A stretch of 64,000 nucleotides of DNA from Terriglobia bacterium (GCA_965218585.1 CBDCLE010000024.1:96001-160000); one strand, 5' to 3'; counted from the stretch's first letter, positions 49,335 to 64,000 are shown. The notes: generated by a model from the letters alone, not told the origin. Numbers and translations: made by a program.

Positions 49335-50246
49335 TCAAGCCTCGATGTACTTCTCGGTTTCCAACGCTGCCATGCAACCGGAACCCGCAGCCGTTACGGC
49401 TTGCTTGAAGATCGGATCCTGAACGTCGCCGCAGGCAAAGACGCCGGGAACGCTTGTGCGGCTGGAACCTGGGACTGTGACGACGTAGCCGTTGTCGTCC
49501 AGATCGATCTGGTTTCTGAATATGCTCGTGTTGGGGTTGTGTCCAATGGCAACAAACACTCCGTCCAGGTCTACCTCAGAGGTCGTATCGTCCTTGACGT
49601 TCCGAATCCGGACCCCGGTCACCGCGTCGTCTCCCAGAACATCTTCAACGACTGTACTGTAGAGAACATTAATTTTTTCGTTGCCCAGAGCGTGATCCTG
49701 CATGATCTTCGAAGCACGGAACTCGTCCCGGCGGTGAATGAGCGCAACGTCCGAAGCAAACTTGGTAAGGAAGGTAGATTCTTCCATTGCCGAATCTCCA
49801 CCACCCACAACTGCTATTTTCTTGTCTCGGAAGAAGAACCCGTCACACGTTGCGCACGTTGAAACACCGTGCCCCATCAGCCGACGTTCGTTATCCAGCC
49901 CGATCAACTTCGCCGAGGACCCGGTCGATATGATGATCGTTTTTGCTTCGAACTCCTGCTTGTCCACGAAAACCCGGAAAGGAGTCTCACCAAGTTCGAC
50001 GCGATCCACATAGCCGGTCAGGATCTCTGCACCAAACCTCTGGGCCTGTTTCTTCATGTCTTCCATCAACTGAGGACCCATTACGCCATCGGGAAATCCC
50101 GGGTAGTTGTCGACCATAGTCGTCAGCGTCAGCTGCCCACCCGGTTCGGCGCCTTCGATAAGAATTGGTTTCAGGTCGGCACGGGCAGCGTAAATAGCAG
50201 CTGTCAGGCCCGCAGGTCCGGATCCGATGATGACCACGTTGCGCAT
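49335..50246 (-). CDS. trxB: Thioredoxin reductase
   Basis: IIGSGPAG, CATCDG, VGGGDSA, VFACGD. Confidence 0.96.
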   Translation of the reverse strand: MRNVVIIGSGPAGLTAAIYAARADLKPILIEGAEPGGQLTLTTMVDNYPGFPDGVMGPQLMEDMKKQAQRFGAEILTGYVDRVELGETPFRVFVDKQEFEAKTIIISTGSSAKLIGLDNERRLMGHGVSTCATCDGFFFRDKKIAVVGGGDSAMEESTFLTKFASDVALIHRRDEFRASKIMQDHALGNEKINVLYSTVVEDVLGDDAVTGVRIRNVKDDTTSEVDLDGVFVAIGHNPNTSIFRNQIDLDDNGYVVTVPGSSRTSVPGVFACGDVQDPIFKQAVTAAGSGCMAALETEKYIEA

Positions 50247-50477
50247 GAATTCACCTCGTTCGGTAAGAGAATCTTATAAGGTAGCACATCCCACGGACAG
50301 CTCCCGTAGGGGGCATTACGCAACGGGCATTCGGGGTCAGCCCCGAGCGATCGGCTCAATGGGAGAGGGGTTATTCGGGGTTCGAGAAGGAGCTGAAAGC
50401 TGATGGCTGACTGCATTGTCTCCTAGGCCGTACTCCTCACCAGTCCATGATCGTCTTGTAGTACTATTTGCAGATAC

Positions 50478-50551
<74 letters not shown>

Positions 50552-50601
50552 TTTCGTTTAAGGGGCTCCGGCAGGCCAACTGACTCCTTCCGGCTTTCTA
50601 G

Positions 50602-51411
50602 GATGTGTTAACACTAATGAGCATGAATGTTTTATAATCAGGCATGGAGATCACACAGGAGCAGTATTGTCGCATCGAGCCGGAACTGCCGCGTCAGCGG
50701 GGCAACGTCAGTCTTTCGAACCTGACGGTCTTGAACGCCATTTTGTATGTGGCTGAGCAGGGCTGCAAGTGGCGCGGTCTGCCCAAGCGCTTTGGCAACT
50801 GGCACACCATCTACACCCGGATGAACCGCTGGTCCAAGAACGGGGTGCTCGACGCCGTCTTCGAAAAACTCCAGCGCGAGCAACTGGTGCGCATCCGGGT
50901 GGAAGCCGTTTCGATGGACTCGACCATTGTGAAGGTGCATCCCGACGGCACGGGAGCGTTAAAAAAAACGGTCCGCAAGCGATCGGCAAATCCCGCGGTG
51001 GATGGACCACCAAGATTCATCTGGTTGCCGCGAATGCTCGAACGGCGATAACGTTTGCGCTCTCGCCCGGCCAAGCGCACGACGCCCCGCAGGGCCGCGA
51101 TCTGCTCGCCGGCCTGGGGCCGTTGCCCGCGCCGCTGCCGCTGCTGATGGACCGTGCCTACCAGGACGACCAGACCCGCCAATTGGCTCTGGATTTTGGG
51201 TGGATTCCCGTCGTGCCGCCCAAGCGCAACCGCCTGGAGCCGTGGGAATACGACCGCGTGCTCTACCGCCGCAGGAACGAAGTCGAGAGGCTCTTCCGCC
51301 GACTCAAGGGTTTTCGGCGTATCTTCTCCCGTTTCGATAAACTCGACGTCATGTTCCTCGCCTTCCTTCACTTCGCACTCATCGTCGAGGCACTACATTA
51401 GTGTTAACGCC
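50602..51411 (+). mobile_element. IS5-family (IS427-like) element, split transposase 50644-51051/50769-51401
   Basis: GCKWRGLP..FG.W, DST, DRAY, RRRNEVER; A8 slippery site at 50961; tagtgttaac IRs; CTAG flanks. Confidence 0.92.
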
Positions 51412-51469
51412 CTAGTTTGGGATGATGTCGATCTGGGTGGAAAGAAGAGTGGCGAGCGGAGGCAAACGG

Positions 51470-51754
51470 TCACGGACCGAGCAGGACACCGATGATCGAG
51501 AGCATGATCGCGACCTGAATGCCGACGAGCCAGTTGAACTGGCGGGAGACGTCCTGTCGAAACCGGTCCATCTTCTGATCTAGAACGTTGAAACGCGAAC
51601 TCAGTTCTTCACGAAACCGATCCACTTTCTGGTCCACTGCGTCCACGCGCCCATTCAGCTGAACGAGGAGTGCGCGAATCTCTCCAAATCCTATGGCGTG
51701 CTCTTCCAACTTACCCTCCAGGTAAGCGACTCGTTCTTCTAGTGACGGAGGCAT
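51470..51754 (-). CDS. Small coiled-coil protein with C-terminal TM helix
   Basis: TATAAT + GGAGG upstream; repeated DQKVDRFR/DQKMDRFR. Confidence 0.7.
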   Translation of the reverse strand: MPPSLEERVAYLEGKLEEHAIGFGEIRALLVQLNGRVDAVDQKVDRFREELSSRFNVLDQKMDRFRQDVSRQFNWLVGIQVAIMLSIIGVLLGP

Positions 51755-51810
51755 TGCCGACCTCCCTCAGGATTATATCGCGCCTTGCATCCAGCGTTTG
51801 ACGGGGTCGT

Positions 51811-51849
51811 TTAGGGAATCGGCACGAGACGTTTGAGTTCGGTGAACTA
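51811..51849 (-). pseudogene. 3' remnant (tail) of Ser/Thr kinase-PD40 gene
   Basis: (W>stop)FTELKRLVPIP*. Confidence 0.7.
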
Positions 51850-51896
51850 GGTCCGCCCGGGCGCTCATCCCAGCGCACTCCAGGCCGGGCCCCTGG

Positions 51897-52864
51897 CTAC
51901 CTGCCACCCGGGCCAGGGAGTGCGCCAAGCGTCGCCGAGTCCCAGTGCTCCTGGATCAGTCCGTTTTCGACACGTACCATGTCGAACCAGTACACAGGAT
52001 ACGTCCTGCTCGAATCGTCCGGATCCTGCCACTCCTGTTTGAACATGAAGAACACGTACGGCCCGCTGGCGATGGTAATCTCCGGCCGATCCTTCCATTC
52101 GGGCTCGATTGGTTCGGGCTCGCTAAACCTAGCGAAGAATTGGCCCCTCCTTCCCCTCACCGGGCTTACGTCGATTCTCGCGGCCCAATCAACGAAGGCC
52201 TGTCGCCCGTTCTCGGATCTGGGGTTGTGCTGAATGAAGCCAGGTGCCATCGCCTGCTCGGCGAGTTCCAGATGCCCGTACTGCAGAATGTCCTTGAACA
52301 GAACCGTCGCAATTTCGACGTTGCGCTGCTCTTGCGGCGTCAAGTCGAGCCTGACGGCGCTGTAGTCGATCCATCAGGAGCACCCCCCATCGGAATCTGT
52401 CGCACCTTCTCGGCATAGTCCCAGTGCTCTTGGATCAGTCCGTTCTCCATGCGCAACAAGTCATACGTGTTGTACGTGTACGTTCTCGACGGCTGGGCCG
52501 CGTCCTCAGTCTCCCGCTCGAACACGAGCACCACGAAGTCGCCCTTGGCGAACGAGGTCACCGGGGGGATTGCCAGTTCTGTGGGCATCGGCTCGAGCGG
52601 AGGATCAAGTGCTGAGAAGAACTGCACGAAGCCATCGCGACCGGTCTGCACGTTGATGTTGTGTTGAATGTAGTCCTCGGCCATGTACTGCGGTGCGAGG
52701 TCAAGGTGCCTCGCTTCGAGCACCTCGCGCCACCAGTCGAGCACGAACTGCAACTTCTGCTGCTCATCAGGCGTCATCGTGCTCGTCTGCGCCGGGAGTG
52801 GAGCGCTTGCTGTGATTAACATAACCACGGCGATCGCGACTCGTCCCGTTGTCAACATGCTCAT
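51897..52864 (-). pseudogene. Secreted tandem SnoaL/NTF2-like protein, frameshifted near 52371
   Basis: Two YIQHN/FIQHN...ENGLIQEHWD domains in different frames; restored linker DGIDYSAVRLDLTPQE. Confidence 0.75.
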
Positions 52865-52873
52865 GACTGCAAT

Positions 52874-52933
52874 ACCTCCTTTACCCAGGAGTGAGAGGAA
52901 CTCGTAGTAACGTACTTTGGTGCCGGATTCCAT
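52874..52933 (-). pseudogene. 5' remnant (head) of Ser/Thr kinase gene
   Basis: MESGTKVRYYEFLSLLGKGG; promoter TTGCCA-18-TAGACT at 52975-53004. Confidence 0.8.
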
Positions 52934-53037
52934 GTCTCTAATGAGTCGCCGTGAGGAACGGCAGAAATCGGCTAAGTCTATCGAGGTGGAAGCGTTGTTG
53001 GCAAGGGGACGGTCAACCGCCTCGTTTTGGCGAATTC

Positions 53038-53071
53038 TCAACGTCCGGGAAGACGATTTCTCAGGCCTTGA
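53038..53071. repeat. 34-bp dif/lox-like site
   Basis: tcaacgtccgggaa-gacgat-ttctcaggccttga; kinase tail KERVPTQ* at 53081-53104 on the minus strand. Confidence 0.85.
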
Positions 53072-53135
53072 CTCGGGGAATTATTGAGTCGGCACCCGTT
53101 CCTTAGAGCACGTGTCTAAGTACGCAGGCCCATAG

Positions 53136-54603
53136 TACTACTGTGTTACAAAAGGCCTATTTTATGTTAGCATCCGGTCATGAGCGCCAAATCGAAGGCG
53201 CCAGGCACTCAGGAAAAACGTTTTGCGGCCTATTTGGAACGCCTGGCGTCGGCCGCAGGACACGCCGATCGTCATGAACCGTTGAAGTCGTACTGCACCG
53301 GGTTGTTGCTGCCGATCAAACGTAAGAGTGTGGAGCCGATGGCTGCACGATTGGCTCCGGATAATGTACGCCGAATGCACCAGTCGCTACATCATCTGGT
53401 CGCGGATGCGCCCTGGGACGATGCGGCTCTGTTGGCAGAAGTTCGACAGTACGCGCTGGGGGCGATGGAAGCCAACGGTCCGATTGAAGCCTGGATTGTC
53501 GACGACACCGGATTCGTGAAAAAGGGGACCCACTCGGTGGGTGTGGCCCGGCAATACTGTGGACAGGTCGGCAAACCTGAGAACTGCCGGGTGGCGGTGA
53601 GCCTGTCGGTGGCGACAGCGAAATCCAGCTTGCCGGTGGCATGGCGACTCTACCTCCCCGAGACCTGGGCGAAGGATCCGGAACGTCGAAGCAAAGCCGC
53701 TATTCCCGAAGACGTTCGATTTCAAACTAAACCTCAAATTGCTTTGGAACAAATCCGGCAGGCCGTCGATGACGGCATTGCTCCGACACCGGTTCTGGGC
53801 GATACGGCCTACGGCAACAACTACAAGTTCCGGCACGGCATCACCGAACTCGGACTTAGCTACGTCCTAGGGGTGCAAGGCACCACGACCGTGTGGAAAC
53901 CGGGCCAGGGTCCCTTGCCGCCGAAATCCTTGACCGGCCGCGGACGGACACCGACCCGCATGCAGCGCAACAAGAAACATCAACCGGTTTCGGTCAAGCA
54001 ACTGGCCCTCTCGTTGTCTCCCCAGCGTTGGAAGAACGTCTCCTGGCGCGAAGGCACCTCCGAGACCCTGCGTTCCCGTTTCGCCGCAGTTCGCATTCGT
54101 CCCGCTCATCTGGATCACGAGCGCCACTCGCCGCATCCGAAAGAGTGGTTGTTGGTCGAGTGGCCCAAGACCGCATCCGAACCGATCCGGTACTGGCTCT
54201 CCACTCTTGGGGCCCATACCTCGCTTTCCGATCTGGCCGGTCAGGCCAAACAGCGCTGGATCATCGAACGCGACTATCAGGAACTCAAGCAGGAACTCGG
54301 TCTGGGACACTACGAAGGTCGCGGCTGGCGTGGATTTCACCATCATGGCACCTTATGTATTGCCTCTTATGGGTTCCTGGTCGCCGAGCGGAGCCGTTTT
54401 TCCCCCTCTGCATTTGTCGAGCATGTTGGACTATCCGTCCCCAAACTCCCCAAACACTTCAAACCCCGCGGAACCCCGGATCCGGCCCGAACGACATAAC
54501 CCCTGCTCGATTGCCACGCTTCGCATTCGCATCGCCCGCTTCCTGATTCAGCAGCTTCCTCGTTGTCCGTTCTGTGGACCGCTTCGTTTGTAACACAGTA
54601 GTA
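53136..54603 (+). mobile_element. IS701-family element, transposase 53180-54499
   Basis: Perfect IR tactactgtgttacaaa, ATAG duplication; IVDDTGFVKKG.HSVGV.RQY, RWIIERDYQELKQELG. Confidence 0.95.
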
Positions 54604-54708
54604 ATAGACGATGCATAGAAAGGTGAGCGACATCAGTTATTCTGAGCTGATTGGCTTTACACACAGCTAACCTTAAGATTACTTTTGGCTCGACAAGGAG
54701 GGAAAGAC

Positions 54709-55133
54709 ATGGCGATTACGTTGCCGGAATCTGTGAAGAAAATCCTACAAGAGCAGATCCACGGGCACATTATTACGTTCAATCCGAAGGGAACGCTACA
54801 GGTCACGTTGGTCTGGCTGGATGTCGATGGGAATGATGTGGTTTTCAATACAGCCGAGGGACGGATCAAACCCAGGAATCTCCGTAACACCCGAGCATAG
54901 TTATCAGCGCCCAGGACCCGAACAACCCCCGCTCTTACATGGTGTTCTATGGCAAGGCAACTGTCAGTGAGGCCGGCGCCGACGAACACATCGACAAGCT
55001 CGCGAAGAAGTTCATGGGTGTTGACAAGTACCCGTTTCGCAAGCCAGACGAGACGCGACTGATCGTGCGAACTGCAGTCGACCGGATAGGCGGCCACGAC
55101 GACACGATGACGCCCTGGCAGAGTAGTCACTGA
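54709..55133 (+). pseudogene. PPOX-class (F420-dependent-type) oxidoreductase, frameshifted near 54888
   Basis: VWLDVDG..VVFNTAEGR.K.RNL then IVISAQDP..HIDKLAKKF in another frame; AAGGAGG SD. Confidence 0.8.
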
Positions 55134-55181
55134 GCCACCCCAAGCAGTCTAGACGCCGGCGTTTTAGGCGGAAATGAAACG

Positions 55182-55215
55182 TCAAGGTCCGAGAAGATGA
55201 TTTCTCAGGACTTGA
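55182..55215. repeat. 34-bp dif/lox-like site
   Basis: tcaaggtccgagaa-gatgat-ttctcaggacttga; kinase tail KERVPVP* at 55225-55248 on the minus strand. Confidence 0.85.
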
Positions 55216-55284
55216 CCTCGGAAATCACGGCACGGGCACCCGTTCCTTCGGTGCATCGTTTTGTTAGGCACGTGATGTCTCTTG

Positions 55285-55428
55285 GAGATGAGCGAAGAGA
55301 ACGCTGAAAAGGCGATTTCGCAGTTCAATGGAAAGGAACTGGATGGCCGGGAACTAACAGTGAACGAAGCCCGACCTCAAACCAATCGCAACAGTGGCGG
55401 AGGTGGCCGAGGCGGAGGACGCTACTAG
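55285..55428 (+). pseudogene. 3' half of RRM RNA-binding protein gene
   Basis: EMSEENAEKAISQFNGKELDGRELTVNEARP...GGGGRGGGRY*; RNP2/RNP1 half absent. Confidence 0.8.
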
Positions 55429-55595
55429 GGGTTCCGCCTAGCGAAAGAGGCAGGGGGGCTGCTTGTTCTACGTGCACCCGTCCCTGCCGCTCACGGATCG
55501 AACGACGAAAGCGATAAAACTCGCTTCCAAACTATCTAAAGTCTCTAACGAAGCGTCATTCGCCTGCTAAACCCGATTGACGTTCTGATGTTTCC

Positions 55596-55811
55596 ATGCG
55601 CCTTACGCGATCTTCGAAATCGATCGACAAACGATGGTATCTGAGCGTGGTCTGCCGGAAGTGCCGATCCGCAATATCATTCGGACTGGATCAGTCCGAA
55701 GGTAAAGGCATCTTACCGCCGATCGGGAAACTTGTGCTCACATGCGGTGAATGCGGCCATCATGCCGCCTATGACTCGACGAAGGTCTCCCGTAGCCAGA
55801 AGATGCTTTGA
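55596..55811 (+). CDS. Small CxxC..CxxC putative Zn-binding protein
   Basis: VVCRKC...LTCGECGH. Confidence 0.55.
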   Translation: MRLTRSSKSIDKRWYLSVVCRKCRSAISFGLDQSEGKGILPPIGKLVLTCGECGHHAAYDSTKVSRSQKML

Positions 55812-55872
55812 CGTTGGCTACTCTATTTCTCCCGCTGCCCGACTTGCTTGGCAAGGCAGGATCGTTGGGAGG

Positions 55873-55906
55873 TCAACGTCCGACAAGATGATTTATCAGG
55901 ACCTGA
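55873..55906. repeat. 34-bp dif/lox-like site
   Basis: tcaacgtccgacaa-gatgat-ttatcaggacctga. Confidence 0.85.
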
Positions 55907-55985
55907 GAGTCATTTTTAATGCAGAAGCTGATCCACTTGCCTTTGCAAACTATAAAACGAGGCAGAGAAATGCGCGACGATGTAC

Positions 55986-57704
55986 CTATTGACACACCTC
56001 TTCACTACTTCTCGGAAACCACTCGCCATACGTATCGGCATTGGCACAAGTGATCACGCTGTTGTCTGAGTAGACGATCTTGCCATCCATTATCGTGAGT
56101 ACGGATTTCACATCGCGTAAGTTTCCCAGGTCTTCCATCCCAAAAACATCGTCGGAGAGGACAGCCACATCTGCCAGTTTGCCCTCTTCGATAGACCCCA
56201 GATTTTCCTCATCAAACGAGAACCATGCGTTGTTTATCGTCATCCATCGAATCGCTTCTTCGACGGTCAGAACGTCTTCAAATACTACGGTACCGGTATC
56301 ATCCAGGCCCGTCGTGACGTGATATATCCCGAGCCAAGGGTTAATAATGGCCACGTTGCCACCATCTGATCCCAGGCCAGAATGTACATCGTGTTCGAAC
56401 AAAGCCTTGAAAGGGGGTGGGGCGATGGGCCCTTCGGATGAATACGAGAAGTAAGCCGCGACAGCTCCACCACCGAGAGCTTCGAGCCGGTCCATACTTG
56501 TCGTGGTCAATAGAGGGACATGAGCCAGGTGCCAACGCAGGGCCGTCAGATCTTCGCTTGACGATTCAAAGGCCGTTAAATAACCATCGCTTTCCAACGG
56601 CGACAACGTGTGCTGAAACACAGTTGCGCCGAGACTTGCCGCGAGATTGATCTTAGGGATGTAAGTTTCTTCGTTGACAACGTCCTCTACTGCTGTCGGG
56701 AATCTAACACCCCCACCGTCGATAAATTCGCCGATCGCGTAATTGCGGTACATTGCGTCTCTAGACGTATCGTTGAGGGTGGTGATTTCATTTTCGAGCG
56801 CTTCCAGGCTTGCGCCGCCATATAAACCTCGAACACGCATAACGGCGCCGTTGTCGGCAATCCGCTGAACTTCTGTGCCTCCGTCCGACAGTGACATGGT
56901 CATACCGAGGCTCGCCGCCCAGGCCTGAACACCGAGAACTCCGTCGACTCTATCCTCTTCGGTTTGCTCAGAGCGTAACTGTTGAGCGGCGATGCTGTTA
57001 AAGAAGGCACGGTTGTTCGTGCCCGAGCCAATGTCGACCACACCATCATCGGAAACAGGCAATCCATGAGCGCGGAAGTAATCAATGCCCGTTGAATTGG
57101 TCTGAGTGCCGCCAGTGAATGTGGATTCAAGATAAATCGGATGGTCGAATTGATTCAGCGTCTCAAAGCTTGGTAATGCACCCTCGACAAATTGCCCCGG
57201 GGTAATGGCACCGATTACGGTGACAAAATTGTTCTGTGTACCGACAGTTCCCGCCTCGGGTAGAGGAATATTCTCTACTGTGATCTGTTTCTGCAGGAGG
57301 ACTACCGCCTCATCCCATGATCTTGCGGAATCCATGGCATATACCATGTGCCCCGGCTTGAGGCCGCGTCCGATAACGTGGCTGTGGTTGTCAATGAGCC
57401 CAGGTATTGCCGTACGTCCTGAAAGATCGATTCTGCAATCGCCGTCGACACCAAGTGTCTCTTCATCGCCGTTACTCAAGCCTGCGACGAGATTGTTCTG
57501 TAACCGAACAGACGAGACGACGCTATTGTCGGCATCCATGGTGTGAATCACGCCGTTATAAAGCACTTTTCCGGAGGCTTCGCTGCAAACATCTGCCCAT
57601 CGAACGCCTGCGCCGACGTCCGGGTCGTTACAGGCGCTTGCAGCGAATGAAATAACTACGGCAAAAGCAAACTTGATTGATATTCGGTTGTTTTTCTTGT
57701 TCAC
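55986..57704 (-). CDS. Amidohydrolase_3-type lipoprotein
   Basis: Lipobox ASAC, IPGLIDNHSH, GSD, GSIEEGKLAD.AVL. Confidence 0.88.
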   Translation of the reverse strand: MNKKNNRISIKFAFAVVISFAASACNDPDVGAGVRWADVCSEASGKVLYNGVIHTMDADNSVVSSVRLQNNLVAGLSNGDEETLGVDGDCRIDLSGRTAIPGLIDNHSHVIGRGLKPGHMVYAMDSARSWDEAVVLLQKQITVENIPLPEAGTVGTQNNFVTVIGAITPGQFVEGALPSFETLNQFDHPIYLESTFTGGTQTNSTGIDYFRAHGLPVSDDGVVDIGSGTNNRAFFNSIAAQQLRSEQTEEDRVDGVLGVQAWAASLGMTMSLSDGGTEVQRIADNGAVMRVRGLYGGASLEALENEITTLNDTSRDAMYRNYAIGEFIDGGGVRFPTAVEDVVNEETYIPKINLAASLGATVFQHTLSPLESDGYLTAFESSSEDLTALRWHLAHVPLLTTTSMDRLEALGGGAVAAYFSYSSEGPIAPPPFKALFEHDVHSGLGSDGGNVAIINPWLGIYHVTTGLDDTGTVVFEDVLTVEEAIRWMTINNAWFSFDEENLGSIEEGKLADVAVLSDDVFGMEDLGNLRDVKSVLTIMDGKIVYSDNSVITCANADTYGEWFPRSSEEVCQ

Positions 57705-57729
57705 AATCTCCCCCTATGGTGCTTGCGTT

Positions 57730-57848
57730 TAGGAGGCCCAAGATCTCGTAGTGGCCGAGTTTGGTGCCAGATTCCATCGTTATGGTGTGTCGCTGAAGAA
57801 ACCGTGAAAAACTCGGTAAAGGATACTAAGGGAGGGGTTTGTAAGCAA
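57730..57848 (-). promoter_or_regulatory. Kinase-unit promoter (TTGCTT-17-TATCCT) plus kinase head 57730-57777
   Basis: Head translates MESGTKLGHYEILGLL; promoter matches 4642-4661. Confidence 0.75.
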
Positions 57849-57863
57849 TCAGAAGGTCAACGC

Positions 57864-59228
57864 GAGGTCATTACAAAAGGTGTGTAAAAGTCATCAGGCG
57901 GCGGCCTTCGATTTCATCACGACTCTGATGCCGTCAGCGAATTGCTGACCATCATAGACCTCTTGTAAGAGTTCGGATCCTTTTAAGTGTCGCCAAGCCT
58001 TCTCAGCGACACGTAGTAGCTTCCAGATCATTGCCGTTGCATTCTCGACACGCTTGAATCGGCGAGCGGCGTTGGTGCGGAGGCGAACCATGTCGAAAGG
58101 CGATTCGACGATGTTGGTTGTTCTCAGATGCACCCAGTGTTGTTTCGGGAACTCATAGAAAGTAATCATCCGGTCCCAGTCCCGCAACAGCGTCTCACCC
58201 GCTTTGGGATAGTTCTTCTCATATCGGCGGACGAACTGATCCCGCTTTCGTTCGCAGGCCGCGCGGGAGTTCGCGAAGGCCATCCCATGAAGCAGCTGTC
58301 TGGCCGCGGGCTGCTCGGTCTTCGGCAGATGATCGACCACGTTGATCGACTTGTGGTTCCAGCAGCGTTGTTCCTGGCCCTGGGGCTGTTGCTCGGCCAG
58401 CGCGGACCAGATGCCCAGGTGACCGTCCGCGACAGTCAGCCGTCCCAGCTTCAGGCCCCGTCTCTGGAGATTGCGCAGAATGCGGCTCCAGGACTCCTTG
58501 CTTTCCCGCTGCCCGCTCTCACAGGCCAACACCACTTTGCGCCCGTCTGACAAGGCTCCGATGATCACCAGCAATGCCGCTCGCTCTTTCGCGATCCCCG
58601 CTTTCACGTACAAGCCGTCTGCCCACTGGTACACGACCTCGAGGCCGGACAGGTCCTGCTGGACCCACTCGTCATACTCCAACTGCCAGGTCGATTTCAG
58701 TCGTTGGATCGATGCTCGCGACAACGGAGCGCCAGCGCCAAGCAGTCCGCGCATGGCCTGCTCGAAGTCCCCTGTGGCCAGACCGTGGAGGTAGAGATCG
58801 GGAAGTAGCTCGCCCAGCTGTTTCGATTTCCGTCGAAAATACGGCAGGATCTGACTCTCGAACCGCTCGGCGGTGTTTCGAACCCGAGGTCGTCGAACCT
58901 CCATCGTACCGTTCATCATTGCGAAGCGTCGCGGCTTCCCGTGACCGTTCCGGTATCCTCGTCGATTCGGACTCCGCTCCAACTTTTCCCGACCCAGAAA
59001 TTGAGTGACTTCGTCCTCGAGCAGCTCCTGTAGCCAGACTTGGACCCGGGATCGCGCCCAGTCCTCCAAACCTTCATACGCGTTCGTTGACGCCACTGAT
59101 GCCGGTATGTTCTTCTTCTTCATGGGTGGTGTACCTTTCTCCCGATTGCTGCCGGGATTGCTTACGGTTTCGAATTCACCGAAAGCGTACACCGCCTTCT
59201 CTTTTTACACACCGATTGGAACGACCTC
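57864..59228 (-). mobile_element. IS256 type A, transposase 57894-59192
   Basis: 1365 bp, 8-bp TSD gtcaacgc. Confidence 0.95.
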
Positions 59229-59254
59229 GTCAACGCTCGAATTTAGGCCAATTC

Positions 59255-59288
59255 TCAACGTCCGACAAGATGATTTAACAGGACTTGA
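59255..59288. repeat. 34-bp dif/lox-like site
   Basis: tcaacgtccgacaa-gatgat-ttaacaggacttga; degenerate tail LKELVRLP* at 59298-59324 on the minus strand. Confidence 0.85.
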
Positions 59289-59357
59289 CCGGGAAGCTTA
59301 AGGTAGCCGCACCAGTTCCTTAAGTCGCGTTTGGTACGCGGACACCCGGGCGCGATA

Positions 59358-60179
59358 ATGATGGAAGTGCTGGACCTATCGGAAACGCTCGCTCAGGAGC
59401 TGGAACGCCCGCGGAAGATTTCCGCTCAGGTTGCTCGCCATCTGGTGGCAAATTACGGCATCGCCGACGATGAGACCGGCCCATTTCTCGTCCAGACGCT
59501 GCCTACGCTCGAGGAGGATGAAATCGACCTGATCCTGTCGCCCTTGTTCACGCCGAAGCTCGCCGACCAAGCCGTGTTCGCCGGTCGGCTCGGCAGGCAG
59601 TCGATCCCGTCGGATGAGCTGGTTCGCCTGGTTGTTCAGGTGGTTGCCCGCCCCACAGACGCCAGCCTTGCCGGGATGGACGACCAAAACCATCGGGTCA
59701 GGCTTGGCGAGGTGACCGTGGAGCGTTACGTGTATCGCCTTCGGCTGGAAGCAACGATTCCAGAGGCAACATTTGAGCTCATCCAGCGGCATCCGTCCGG
59801 CGACTACCCACTTTTTCAGGCCGTCGCGCGCCGCGCAACCTGGGAGGGGGACGGCCGGTCCGGAATCCTCAGAGGTTACCTGATGGCAACGGCAGGTATC
59901 GAGGCTTGGGGCGCGGCCGAGGTGCGCTCCCTGCTCGATCTGGTGGACCGCTACAAGCCCATCGACATCGCCGATCTGGTAGCGAAGATTCCCAGATGGC
60001 AGGAAGGATTGCGAAGTGATCTTAGCTTGGCTTCGGGACGAAAGCCGTTTTTCAGCGAAGGGATCGAACACTCTCACGGTGGAGAGCGCGACCATCGTTC
60101 ACCAGAGGGCGCTCTGATCGAGGCGAAGAGGCGGGAACTGAGTTTTCTCGAACGCCTCGAGTTACTTCTAGTGCACTGA
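59358..60179 (+). CDS. Hypothetical protein
   Basis: ORF of about 273 aa filling the interval between two sites. Confidence 0.65.
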   Translation: MMEVLDLSETLAQELERPRKISAQVARHLVANYGIADDETGPFLVQTLPTLEEDEIDLILSPLFTPKLADQAVFAGRLGRQSIPSDELVRLVVQVVARPTDASLAGMDDQNHRVRLGEVTVERYVYRLRLEATIPEATFELIQRHPSGDYPLFQAVARRATWEGDGRSGILRGYLMATAGIEAWGAAEVRSLLDLVDRYKPIDIADLVAKIPRWQEGLRSDLSLASGRKPFFSEGIEHSHGGERDHRSPEGALIEAKRRELSFLERLELLLVH

Positions 60180-60209
60180 TCCGGTAACAGGACTTATCGT
60201 TCCGCGGCG

Positions 60210-60243
60210 TCGAGGTCCGCGAAGATGATTTATCGGGACCTGA
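60210..60243. repeat. 34-bp dif/lox-like site
   Basis: tcgaggtccgcgaa-gatgat-ttatcgggacctga. Confidence 0.85.
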
Positions 60244-60266
60244 GAATCGTTTTCATGGTCATCTAG

Positions 60267-62003
60267 CCCGCATGTTTCACCAGTCCGGCGATCAGGGGGA
60301 TTTGGGCAGTAAGAATCGGATTCGGGAGGATCTGGGTTCGAATTGGGCATGTGTGGCGTGACTCGGCGGTGTCGACAAGCGGGAGTTGCTGCGTTTTCGG
60401 GTTCAGAAGAGGGTGACGAAACGCACTGAGACAAACCTCGGCGGAGCCGAAAAGAGCGAGTCGATTTTGGCGCAGGGGATCGGGTCGGTTCTCAGCAGCG
60501 CAGAGGAAGCGCCTGCAGGTTTCGATGGACGAGGGCAAAGACCTCGGCGTAGGGATAGGCTTCCGACATGGAGATCCAGATGTTGCGAACCGTCAGACGG
60601 ACTTGAGCTCCGATCTTGAGGAGCTTCAAGCGGATCGTCTGGCACTGAGCGCGGGCCAGATCGGTATTCTTCAGTCCCAGACGGCGTAACGCGTGCAGGA
60701 GCATGTAGGCGGCCGAGGACAGATAGAGCCGGAGTTGATTGGCGCGCATGGTTGCCGCGCTGGTCCGGTCGGCGAATAGATCCAACTGCTGTTCCTTGAT
60801 GCGATTTTCCATGTCGCCCCGCGCACAGTAAAAGTCTTCATAGAGGGCGCGGGCGTCCAGGCGTTCCGGCGACAGTGAGGTCACAACGAATCGAGGATTG
60901 GCGCCTTTCTCCAGGAACTCGGCCTTGCCGATGACGCGTCGGGTGCAGGTCCAGCTCTTCCGAGTGCGATACCGGAAATCGTTAAACACCCGCGCCGGTT
61001 TCCCGGTGTCGTTAAACTCGGCTTCGGCCTGACTCATCGATTCAGCGATCTCGCGCTTGAGCCGATCGTTCTTGGCCAGACCCACCACGTAATCGACCTG
61101 GTGGGCCTCGCACCAACTCAGCAATTCATCCCGGCAAAAGCCCGAGTCGGCCCGGATGATAATCGACACCTCCGGCCAGCTCTGCCGGATCTGGCCGATG
61201 ATGCGGTTCAATTCCTCGACGGCGCCGTCCGCACCGTCGACATTGGAGCACCGCAACCGGGCGCATAGCAGATGCTCTCCCGAAAAGATGTAGAGCGGCA
61301 GATAACAGTAGTTGCCGTAGTAGCCGTGAAAGAACCGTCCTTCCTGATGGCCATGGATCGGATCATCGGTCGCATCCAGGTCCAGAACAATCTCCTCGGG
61401 CGCCGATCCGTGAGCCGCCACAAATGCATCCACCATCCAGCGGTCGATCTTGTCCGGGTCCATGGCAATCTTCTTGTACCGCTCCTTCCCATCGACTTGC
61501 TCCCCGGTCAGTTCCAACCGGTTCAGCGTACACTTGCCCGCCAACGCTTTTCCCCGGTCTCGGGCCTGCCGCCGCTTCTCCCCCAGTGGATCGGCCTTAT
61601 CCACCGCCACGGCCAGCATCGGATCGGTCCGCAGTTGGTCATGATCGTTCAGATCCTCGTAGCCCAGACAGAGTCCGTAGACGCGCTGCCCCAATAACTC
61701 GCTCACCGTGTGTTCGATCAACCTCGCGTCCCGGTAATCCCTGAAACACTCGGCCAGTCCGGCGATCAGACCCGTTCGCTTTTCCACTTCCCTCAACAGC
61801 AGAACCCCAGCGTCGGAGGTGATCTTTCCGCCGTCAAAACGCGCCTTCACTTTTCGTTGAAGAAGTCCGTGAAATTCGAACGTCGTTTGGTTACACTCTG
61901 TTCTCATAAGGGCCGTCTCCGTTTGGCTTGTTAAACGTTTATTTCAAAACGCTTTATGCCAGACAGGGCGGCCTTTTCTGGTCCTATCGGTGAAATATGC
62001 GGG
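60267..62003 (-). mobile_element. IS1380-family element, transposase 60492-61907
   Basis: 1737 bp, CTAG duplication that is the stop codon of the kinase tail. Confidence 0.97.
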
Positions 62004-62093
62004 CTAGGGCACCGGCACCCGTTCTTTGAGTTCCTCGAACCAATTGAGGACGATGTTGATTTGTGGGCGCGTCACCTCGGCCGTCTGAGCACT
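62004..62093 (-). pseudogene. 3' remnant (tail) of Ser/Thr kinase-PD40 gene
   Basis: SAQTAEVTRPQINIVLNWFEELKERVPVP*. Confidence 0.85.
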
Positions 62094-62104
62094 GCAGATG
62101 CGTC

Positions 62105-62200
62105 TCAGGCGAGGAAGCTTACGAACATGCTTGCGGCGCGCCCGAAATGGCGGCACTGATCCACCGCGACGACGTATTCGAGCTGTGTGATCGTAGGCAT
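62105..62200 (-). pseudogene. oxyR: 5' fragment of OxyR-like LysR regulator
   Basis: MPTITQLEYVVAVDQCRHFGRAA, divergent from katG; ATAG-N7-CTAT box at 62210-62224. Confidence 0.75.
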
Positions 62201-62241
62201 GCGATGAATATAGGGAATGACTATTGAAGATAGTAAAATAG

Positions 62242-64000
<1,759 letters not shown>

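Follow-up and report, generated by a model that had tools for sequence, protein, structure and literature searches.

The DNA analysed here is a 64,000-nt stretch from a Terriglobia bacterium (GCA_965218585.1 CBDCLE010000024.1:96001-160000, hereafter the window), in which an array of short conserved sites, remnants of serine/threonine-kinase genes and unrelated cargo genes occupies the minus strand between a tRNA-Arg gene and katG (from 62266). An earlier note on this sequence had described a tandem cassette array in which hollowed-out kinase genes are separated by 34-bp sites, and all five of the sites, both of the kinase heads and five tails that it listed were found again (Table 1). The site copies have 32 invariant columns when aligned and, read in gene direction, the consensus (A/T)(G/T)(G/C)TCAAGTCCTGA(G/T/C)AAATCATCTT(C/G)TCGGAC(G)TTGAG. 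In this genome (G000), which is compared here with four others of the same genus (G001 to G004), the region is one decayed, insertion sequence (IS)-ridden member of at least 15 multi-site cassette clusters in G000.

The spacing of the parts is as regular as the note had reported. In all three of the claimed cases the stop codon of the tail lies 9 nt from the site, counted in the 34-bp frame used earlier (the site coordinates in Table 1 refer to a 38-nt frame), and the site lies 105 nt from the head ATG twice, directly in one case (53038/52933) and in the other (59255/57777, 1478 - 1373 = 105) after subtraction of the 1373 bp that make up an IS256-family element and its 8-bp duplication. A contig joint from 57855 to 59229 ("both 8"), present in four of four public runs, agrees with removal of this element, and it could stem from paralogous junctions because its sides measure only 19-22 nt. 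The units carry cargo of unrelated Pfam families (SnoaL, PNPOx, amidohydrolase, Zn-ribbon) and one open reading frame (ORF) of no family, again as the note had said, and three of these cargo units run opposite to the strand of the sites. A sixth tail had been thought probable at 51412-51435; a frame ending in ...TQIDIIPN and a stop can be read there, directly beside the IS5-type element end at 51416, and is at most a possible truncated tail. The tail at 62004 is probably the partner of the site at 60209, with an IS1380-family element bearing CTAG flanks lodged between the stop and the 16-nt leader. Four IS families (IS5-type, IS701, IS256 and IS1380) break up the array as a whole.

Table 1. 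Features of the cassette array and its borders, in order of position in the window.
Feature	Position	Strand	Remarks
tRNA-Arg gene (TCG)	50478-50551	+	array and katG separate it from genes close to this tRNA in G004
IS5-type element	50598-51416	+	G003 copies are 97.6% identical; lies at the array end nearest the tRNA
Degenerate 11-codon kinase tail remnant FTELKRLVPIP-stop	51811-51846	-	no site after it
Two tandem SnoaL-like cargo genes	51897-52870	-	Pfam
Kinase head 1, MESGTKVRYYEFLSLLGKGG (MESGTK..., 20 kinase codons)	52874-52933	-	fused in frame to SnoaL-type ORF
Site 1-head 1 junction	52934-53036	-	sole promoter-like match TTGCCA-18-TAGACT (53004-52975), a consensus match only
Site copy 1	53037-53074	-	class A left arm GTCAAGGCC, spacer AATCGTCT
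Kinase tail remnant KERVPTQ-stop	53081-53104	-	stop-to-34-bp-site gap 9 nt
IS701-family transposase gene	53180-54499	+	between site 1 and PNPOx unit
PNPOx-type cargo gene, frameshifted, two frames	54685-55133	+	opposite strand to sites; Pfam
Site copy 2	55181-55218	-	class A left arm, spacer AATCATCT
Kinase tail remnant, KERVPVP-type DNA, EGTGARAV-stop frame	55225-55251	-	stop-to-site gap 9 nt
Short RRM-like fragment and 71-aa Zn-ribbon-like ORF (weak Pfam match)	55282-55811	+	opposite strand to sites
Site copy 3	55872-55909	-	TCTCAGG left arm, ...AAAAATGA before it; no kinase tail
Amidohydrolase cargo gene (Amidohydro_3), 572 aa	55986-57704	-	Pfam
Kinase head 2, MESGTKLGHYEILGLL (16 codons)	57730-57777	-	amidohydrolase block starts at 57715
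IS256-family element with 8-bp duplication (1373 bp)	57856-59228	-	within promoter junction
Site copy 4	59254-59291	-	class A left arm
Kinase tail remnant KELVRLP-stop	59298-59321	-	stop-to-site gap 9 nt
282-aa cargo ORF without Pfam family	59331-60179	+	opposite strand to sites
Site copy 5	60209-60246	-	class B context: stop, 16 nt ATGACCATGAAAACGA, then site
IS1380-family element, CTAG flanks	60263-62003	-	between tail 62004 and site 5; probable limits
Kinase tail PQINIVLNWFEELKERVPVP-stop	62004-62063	-	parted from site copy 5 by the IS1380-family insertion

The site is genome-wide and genus-wide rather than local, as emerged from a scan of the kind that the note had proposed. A position weight matrix made from the five copies in the window matched G000 at 83 places, and one rebuilt from 62 strong copies found 86, with none in the reversed genome. 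These form 25 clusters, 15 of which hold at least two sites. A degenerate pattern was present in six of the 31 related genomes searched, namely in G000 (49 copies), G001 (127), G003 (93), G002 (10) and two genomes of another genus (G007 and G017, one each); G004 and 24 other related genomes had none, and the reversed-pattern control gave none everywhere. The single sites of the other genus (L001, L002) have ordinary genes and an IS91-family element as neighbours and are uninformative on the origin of the site. Dozens of arrays are spread across G000, a soil/sediment acidobacterium, and two sister species, and those of G001 and G003 resemble those of G000.

The anatomy of the site was derived from the position-wise composition of 132 copies from three species, with conservation above 95% at no fewer than 25 of the 38 positions. 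Two imperfect inverted arms of about 13 bp, which require single-base offsets to pair, flank a centre of 8 bp, AATCATCT, which is asymmetric. Hardly any variation occurs in the right arm, TCGGACGTTGA, and the left arm occurs in three classes (GTCAAGTCCTGA, CTCAACGCCTG and CTCAAGGTAACGA). A second class of site, which accounts for 18 of 76 sites in G000, combines the same arms with the centre AACGATCT or AACGACAT. It is usually inverted and placed against the promoter-like region of the kinase genes (8 of 14 heads, with two further cases interrupted by an IS), where, in the heads examined, the inverted second-class site or half-site abuts a -35-like TTGC box at a fixed 26 nt from TAGTAT. Orientation follows these classes closely in G000: for any two consecutive main-class sites separated by up to 10 kb, the strand is the same (31 of 31 cases; median spacing 1598 bp, range 438-9033 bp), and all 17 pairs of neighbouring sites on opposite strands involve the second class. 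When five site copies were folded as single-stranded DNA, no significant hairpin was found (z -1.7 to +0.6); one copy gave the expected hairpin (-13.6 kcal/mol, z -1.7) and the remaining four did not. Covariation in the inner stem was weak, with 76 of 132 compatible pairs against about 63 expected, and a search of 50000-63000 against Rfam (E <= 1) returned a tRNA and two chance matches, none of them at sites. Given the weak folding, the scant covariation and the lack of an Rfam match, we read the site as a putative double-stranded protein-binding site.

The site is also the target of an IS30-family element (NF033563; an intact G004 copy scores 287 bits, L050:1-1836), which is inserted exactly in the site centre after ...AAATC(A), for example at G000:C13:7089-8374 and C3:347515-348815 and on further G000 contigs. 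By eye, 7 of the 16 half-sites in G000 that retain only the left part run into an end of this element, 5 of the 15 that retain only the right part are preceded by one, and both centre classes are struck. It looks like an IS specialised on the site repeat.

That the sites delimit mobile units, as the note had proposed, is borne out by comparison between species: shared cassettes are 92-97% identical, against 68-81% for core genes, and lie at different loci with different neighbours. On contig C12 of G000, a 2.7-kb segment composed of a JmjC gene, a site, an M90-peptidase/SEC-C gene and a second site stands in for a 177-aa gene that is found at the syntenic place in G001, G002, G003 and G004, and the core genes flanking it are 68-81.5% identical to those of the relatives. 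The M90-peptidase/SEC-C unit matches a copy at an unrelated locus of G003 with 97.4% identity and a copy in a G001 array with 91.8%. Between G000 and G003, high identity begins in the upstream site and stops at the centre of the downstream site, after ...GAAATC, and G003 has only the left half-site after this cassette. Two other G000 arrays gave many scattered single-cassette matches to G001 and G003 at 84-95% identity. Among them, a DUF3024 cassette is 94.6% and 92% identical across species and another cassette 92.6% and 91.6%, all at unrelated loci. The DUF3024 cassette carries three different left halves in its upstream site in the three genomes; common to all three are the right half of that site, including its rare final C, and the rare TCAGG arm of the downstream site. 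Its downstream neighbour in G001 is a cassette that G000 has in a different array and G003 on another contig. The site that joins the two in G001 (L067:1049) is a hybrid, since positions 0-17 equal those of the G003 site after the first cassette (L068:1088) and positions 18, 25-26 and 31-32 follow the G003 site before the second (L066:506). Descriptively, then, these are real cassette arrays, with direct sites, variable content, sharing between species and hybrid sites.

The position of the breakpoints was surveyed among 173 sites with full flanks, which yielded 21 pairs similar downstream only and 14 pairs similar upstream only. A change-point model was restricted to pairs with gap-free proximal flanks (10 downstream-only and 4 upstream-only). 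In 12 of these 14 pairs (8 of 10 and 4 of 4, respectively) the switch falls inside the site (+/- 8 nt), and the 95% interval likewise covers the centre in 12 of 14 (8 of 10 and 4 of 4); near-invariance of the site makes these intervals wide. No orthologous pair of filled and empty sites was found among all loci compared, the arrays not being syntenic between genomes, and contigs of public runs in Logan gave no trustworthy circle or deletion junction. Contig joints from 53072 to 55182, 57828 to 60216, 57781/57790 to 55873 and 55238 to 57742 have sides of 24-35 nt at 90% likeness, and nothing is drawn from them because paralogous junctions or other organisms are possible sources. The last of these, seen in one contig each of runs X19 and X24, would set a head of about 12 codons straight onto the tail hairpin as an apparent empty shell; its side is 35 nt long at 90% likeness, and another locus or organism is a possible source. 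Parts of the stretch that X1 and X24 leave uncovered are given no weight.

Intact kinase genes encode Pkinase and PD40 domains, and, as the note had predicted, sites flank such genes: in G001, one site precedes the ATG of an 889-aa kinase by 104 nt and a second comes directly after its stop, and an 848-aa kinase in G000 has one 103 nt upstream. A site follows within 6-17 nt in 11 of 18 tails in G000. The note's further proposal, that site, promoter and kinase gene together formed the ancestral unit, is not supported by G004, a genome with no match to the site pattern, in which tandem kinases, intact at 885 and 895 aa, have the head and tail described above. There, 48 kb of arrays contain no site, and the kinase junctions have a canonical TTGACC-17-TAGTAT box in its place. 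Many sites flank non-kinase genes without any kinase remnant, and paralogous kinases are about 70% identical in their interiors and about 95% identical in their junctions. The last tail codons form a GC-rich inverted repeat followed by TGATTTT, a terminator-like arrangement that a simple scan did not flag; in scans against shuffled sequence, promoter and terminator matches were not above chance (4 against 4.5 and 11 against 10.1).

The picture of hollowed kinases holds in part. Many kinase copies are ordinary pseudogenes with stops or truncations: long open frames occur at 5 of 14 heads and 3 of 18 tails in G000, and at 2-3 of 16 heads and 1 of 20 tails in the sampled arrays of G001 and G003. 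Several copies remain recognisable kinase sequence beyond an in-frame stop. Kinase-PD40 genes of three species carry single in-frame stops (GEV-stop-RAK, LGR-stop-VAIK) in otherwise continuous sequence, with examples at L017:19791, L015:3928, L020, L023 and the G000 heads. This points to family-wide pseudogenisation or, less likely, to some read-through. The same cargo gene meets heads, tails and sites at positions that differ between genomes and is once inverted. These variable junctions indicate that cargo replacement is a second process and not site-specific.

We propose a mechanism in which a cassette consists of the right half of one site, a promoter-like junction, one or two genes and the left half of the next site. 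Recombination within the site would excise and insert such cassettes and exchange them from array to array and from species to species, most likely through a trans-acting recombinase encoded away from the arrays and following the simple logic of lox, FRT or dif rather than that of a folded attC. Most resident cassettes would be, or would once have been, Ser/Thr-kinase-PD40 genes, which would be why many units keep a kinase head or tail; a second, non-specific process would replace the contents of cassettes, so that the units would come to look like hollowed kinases. The sites, their common direction, the sharing of cassettes between species and the breakpoints in the site are observed; the enzyme, the exact crossover point and excision as circles are what we infer here. 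The explanation that we tentatively put first, with a confidence that comes close to even, is that a site-specific recombinase, dedicated or co-opted, acts at the centre of a lox-like site.

The search for such an enzyme produced several candidates that had to be rejected. The integron integrase IntI (TIGR02249) is absent from G000, where the best score is 83.7 bits against a cut-off of 265, and from G004, and is present once each in G001, G002 and G003 (440-458 bits), at G001:C9:714608-715549 (L028), G002:C41:5422451-5423395 (L026) and G003:C2:3040327-3041268 (L027/L040). Beyond the 3' end of the G003 gene lie, by eye, small genes typical of cassettes (a Fic/DOC-like pair, a GNAT-like gene and a glyoxalase-like gene). 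G000, G001, G003 and G004 each have one canonical dif (in G000 it is CGCATAATGAGTATTATGTCAAGT, C10:37495-37518), which should be useful for locating the terminus in these assemblies; it is unlike the site, and Xer/dif was rejected. An IS91-family transposase gene (Y2_Tnp and Zn_Tnp_IS91; L031:1990-4052, L003, L032, L035, L036) always has a 293-aa Xer/IntI-like tyrosine recombinase gene upstream. Five of eight copies examined lie 116-306 nt from a site, often just downstream of it in G001. With about 7 copies in G001, about 25 in G002 (which has 10 sites), 2 in G003 and none in G000, copy numbers do not match site numbers; the linked recombinase was therefore rejected and the element taken as another IS that lands at junctions. 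REP-associated tyrosine transposases (RAYTs), which accompany repetitive extragenic palindromic (REP) sequences, were rejected too, as G000 has two Y1_Tnp genes, one with a weak site 2 kb away and the other with none.

A number of findings weigh against a site-specific recombinase. First, the 12 tyrosine-recombinase matches (PF00589) in G000, two of them Xer-like, include none in an array; serine recombinases do not track the arrays, and G001, with the most sites, has only three, none near an array; the 20-kb stretches around IntI in G001, G002 and G003 (roughly 14-22 kb either side) contain no site; and no candidate tracks the sites across the five genomes of the genus. Second, the informative breakpoint pairs are few and non-independent, three coming from one cassette family. 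One of the 12 in-site intervals (26-41) misses the centre, two downstream-only pairs switch upstream of the site, at -47 and -21, and linkage between the downstream cassette and the variable right-arm positions is weak on average (e.g., 0.57 against a background of 0.49 at position 25). Third, boundaries of several cassettes lie away from the sites. The C12 insertion lacks a site at its left boundary, similarity of the G001 SEC-C peptidase gene to that of G000 is confined to the span from about -70 to the stop, and the G003 half-site after the SEC-C cassette could instead come from IS30-family elements cutting the site centre. A 1447-bp block with a 423-aa amidohydrolase gene, 96.8% identical between contigs C4 and C9, has opposite orientations relative to the sites and ends 19-220 nt from them. 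The amidohydrolase gene of the window has a counterpart in G003 (93-96% identical) and another elsewhere in G000 (C14, 86%). In all three contexts its 5' breakpoint is the same and falls immediately ahead of the ribosome-binding site, preceded by the kinase head in the window, by an IS256 end in C14 and by an IS in G003. Its 3' junctions all differ, with a 19-codon tail and a site in G003, 40 more native bases and a tail-less site in the window, and no site in C14.

Homologous recombination at short repeats is a serious rival, if in our judgement a less likely one. It would need no dedicated enzyme: the site, together with tail, promoter and head where these are present, would serve as portable homology through which RecA-type recombination or gene conversion after DNA uptake swaps contents, and the uniformity of the site would be kept by concerted evolution and interspecies exchange. 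The failure to find a recombinase fits this, and so does the scatter of the change-point estimates over site positions 0 to 42, with no single nucleotide preferred, the interval that misses the centre, the two pairs that break in upstream tail homology and the weak linkage of the right arm. The replacement of a resident gene by the C12 segment fits a double crossover or an illegitimate event and not insertion at a site. The breakpoint data as a whole nevertheless do not favour it; they favour neither model, because cassettes that share only the site must break there either way. Homology would impose no sequence requirement, yet in three species the site hardly varies at 25 or more of its 38 positions, and a second class exists with conserved arms and a different conserved centre. 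A length of 38 bp is near the minimum for efficient RecA recombination, and the direct orientation in 31 of 31 cases is nothing that homologous recombination requires.

Less probable still, in our view, is that the site is a dispersed intergenic repeat without a role in recombination, such as an operator or insulator placed between terminator and promoter or a selfish repeat resembling REPs or miniature inverted-repeat transposable elements (MITEs); it would simply be frequent in accessory islands, the cassette boundaries being a by-product. Its place between the tail-encoded hairpin with T-run and the promoter-like junction would suit this idea, as would the fixed 26-nt distance of the inverted second-class site or half-site from TAGTAT (complete at 8 of 14 heads, interrupted at two), the tendency of crude ORFs to run in the direction of the site (47 of 71 upstream and 51 of 70 downstream) and its use as an IS target, which is also known of REPs. 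An operator would, however, travel whole; here the left half goes with the upstream unit and the right half with the downstream one, and upstream-only pairs lose similarity by about position 13-21. The absence of a significant hairpin, the weak inner-stem covariation, the lack of an Rfam match, the promoter and terminator scans at chance level and the two Y1 (RAYT-type) genes not flanked by sites argue in the same direction. Finally, a decayed tandem kinase array with random indels, in which the site is part of an old intergenic spacer inherited by duplication, is very improbable and already largely refuted, since the prevalence of kinase pseudogenes and fragments in all three genomes and the four IS families in the window, which it would explain, are outweighed by the site-less tandem kinases of G004, kinase interiors far less alike than the sites (about 70% against about 95%), the many sites beside non-kinase genes and cassettes shared between species at far higher identity than core genes.

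By the features tested, the arrays are not a member of the integron, dif-module or REP/RAYT families, and a literature search of titles and abstract openings found no description of such sites in Acidobacteria. Like integron arrays and clusters of attC sites lacking integrases (CALINs), they consist of mostly single-gene units behind one family of imperfect-palindromic sites in one orientation (31 of 31), differ in content between close species, carry small-enzyme cargo (SnoaL and amidohydrolase, with GNAT- and glyoxalase-like genes by eye) and have sites that are hybrids of parts of two neighbouring cassettes; as with CALINs, many clusters have no integrase beside them. The site itself is unlike attC, which measures 57-141 nt and is conserved as a folded structure: it is 34-38 bp long, conserved in sequence and without a significant single-strand fold, and the putative crossover is central (12 of 14 pairs) rather than terminal, between G and TT. 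The units also seem to bring their own promoter-like junction, unlike integron cassettes; IntI is absent from G000, and the 20-kb stretches around the IntI genes of G001, G002 and G003 are free of sites. We count the system among neither the classical integrons nor the pdif systems, and the note had likewise recognised no described system of this kind.

With the pdif modules of Acinetobacter the arrays have in common short double-stranded sites with one conserved and one variable arm, modules that occur in differing contexts and the absence of a recombinase encoded by the module. The dif modules described in one report have a 28-bp site with two 11-bp arms, the XerD arm being more conserved, and a 6-bp centre, and are flanked by inverted repeats (PMC6449649); the modules studied here are, in contrast to that description, bounded by direct repeats in 31 of 31 cases. 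Likeness to the canonical dif is limited to a GTCAAGT heptamer in a different position; the site lacks the ATAA/TTAT inner arms and has longer arms and a longer centre. Its layout recalls loxP and FRT, in which two arms surround a directional 8-bp centre: the length is 34 bp, the two inverted arms measure about 13 bp, the asymmetric centre gives direction, and the second class with other centre letters recalls heterospecific lox variants. Unlike loxP and FRT, it has arms offset by single-base bulges, occurs in natural multi-copy arrays and has no known cognate recombinase. REPs, bacterial interspersed mosaic elements and Correia MITEs are likewise genus-specific intergenic imperfect palindromes in tens to hundreds of copies that serve as IS targets near gene ends. 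The strict direct orientation within arrays, the confinement to accessory clusters, the linkage of site halves to different neighbours, the lack of a RAYT association and the apparent lack of a stable hairpin set the site apart from these.

We consider it possible, at a confidence below that given to the recombinase itself, that this is an undescribed cassette system in which lox-like 34-bp sites of two mutually incompatible centre classes are spread over many arrays. A trans-acting recombinase independent of IntI would move units of promoter plus gene between arrays and species, and kinase-PD40 genes would have been the first passengers, their ends now serving as slots for expression and termination.

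Some features of the surroundings of the array deserve mention. The same IS1380 end that interrupts the window array abuts a site at G000 C15:67746, with upstream sequence 99.7% identical, which suggests that this element has a favoured insertion point about 16 nt ahead of the site. On contig C18 of G004, about 5 kb separate tRNA-Arg and trxB from genes whose distance in G000 is about 23 kb (C24:169699-173594); the array and katG therefore occupy a variable island beside the tRNA gene. A tyrosine integrase gene lies inside the tRNA-Arg island of G004, and its homologue in G000 is split by an IS. The katG gene of the window (62266-64000) has a second copy in G000 (C1:35512-37192) at 96.8% identity. 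G002 and G003 have two apiece at 89-90%, clearly higher than core-gene identity, and katG may itself be part of the mobile pool.

In summary, no well-known system other than integrons and dif modules, both found in Proteobacteria of clinical interest, is to our knowledge built of single genes stacked behind a short recombination site, and Acidobacteriota are among the commonest bacteria of soil and sediment. If the proposed mechanism is true, the Acidobacteriota would own a third, independent solution with a much simpler site and with cassettes that bring their own expression signals, which would explain the spread of accessory genes at 92-97% identity among species whose core genes are 70-80% identical. 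There would then be a new pair of recombinase and site to look for, and the 34-bp site would be a simple marker for mining cassette gene pools in metagenomes. Even if homologous recombination should prove to be responsible, the arrays would remain a clear case of a short conserved repeat that organises gene exchange, with an IS30-family element apparently specialised on that repeat.

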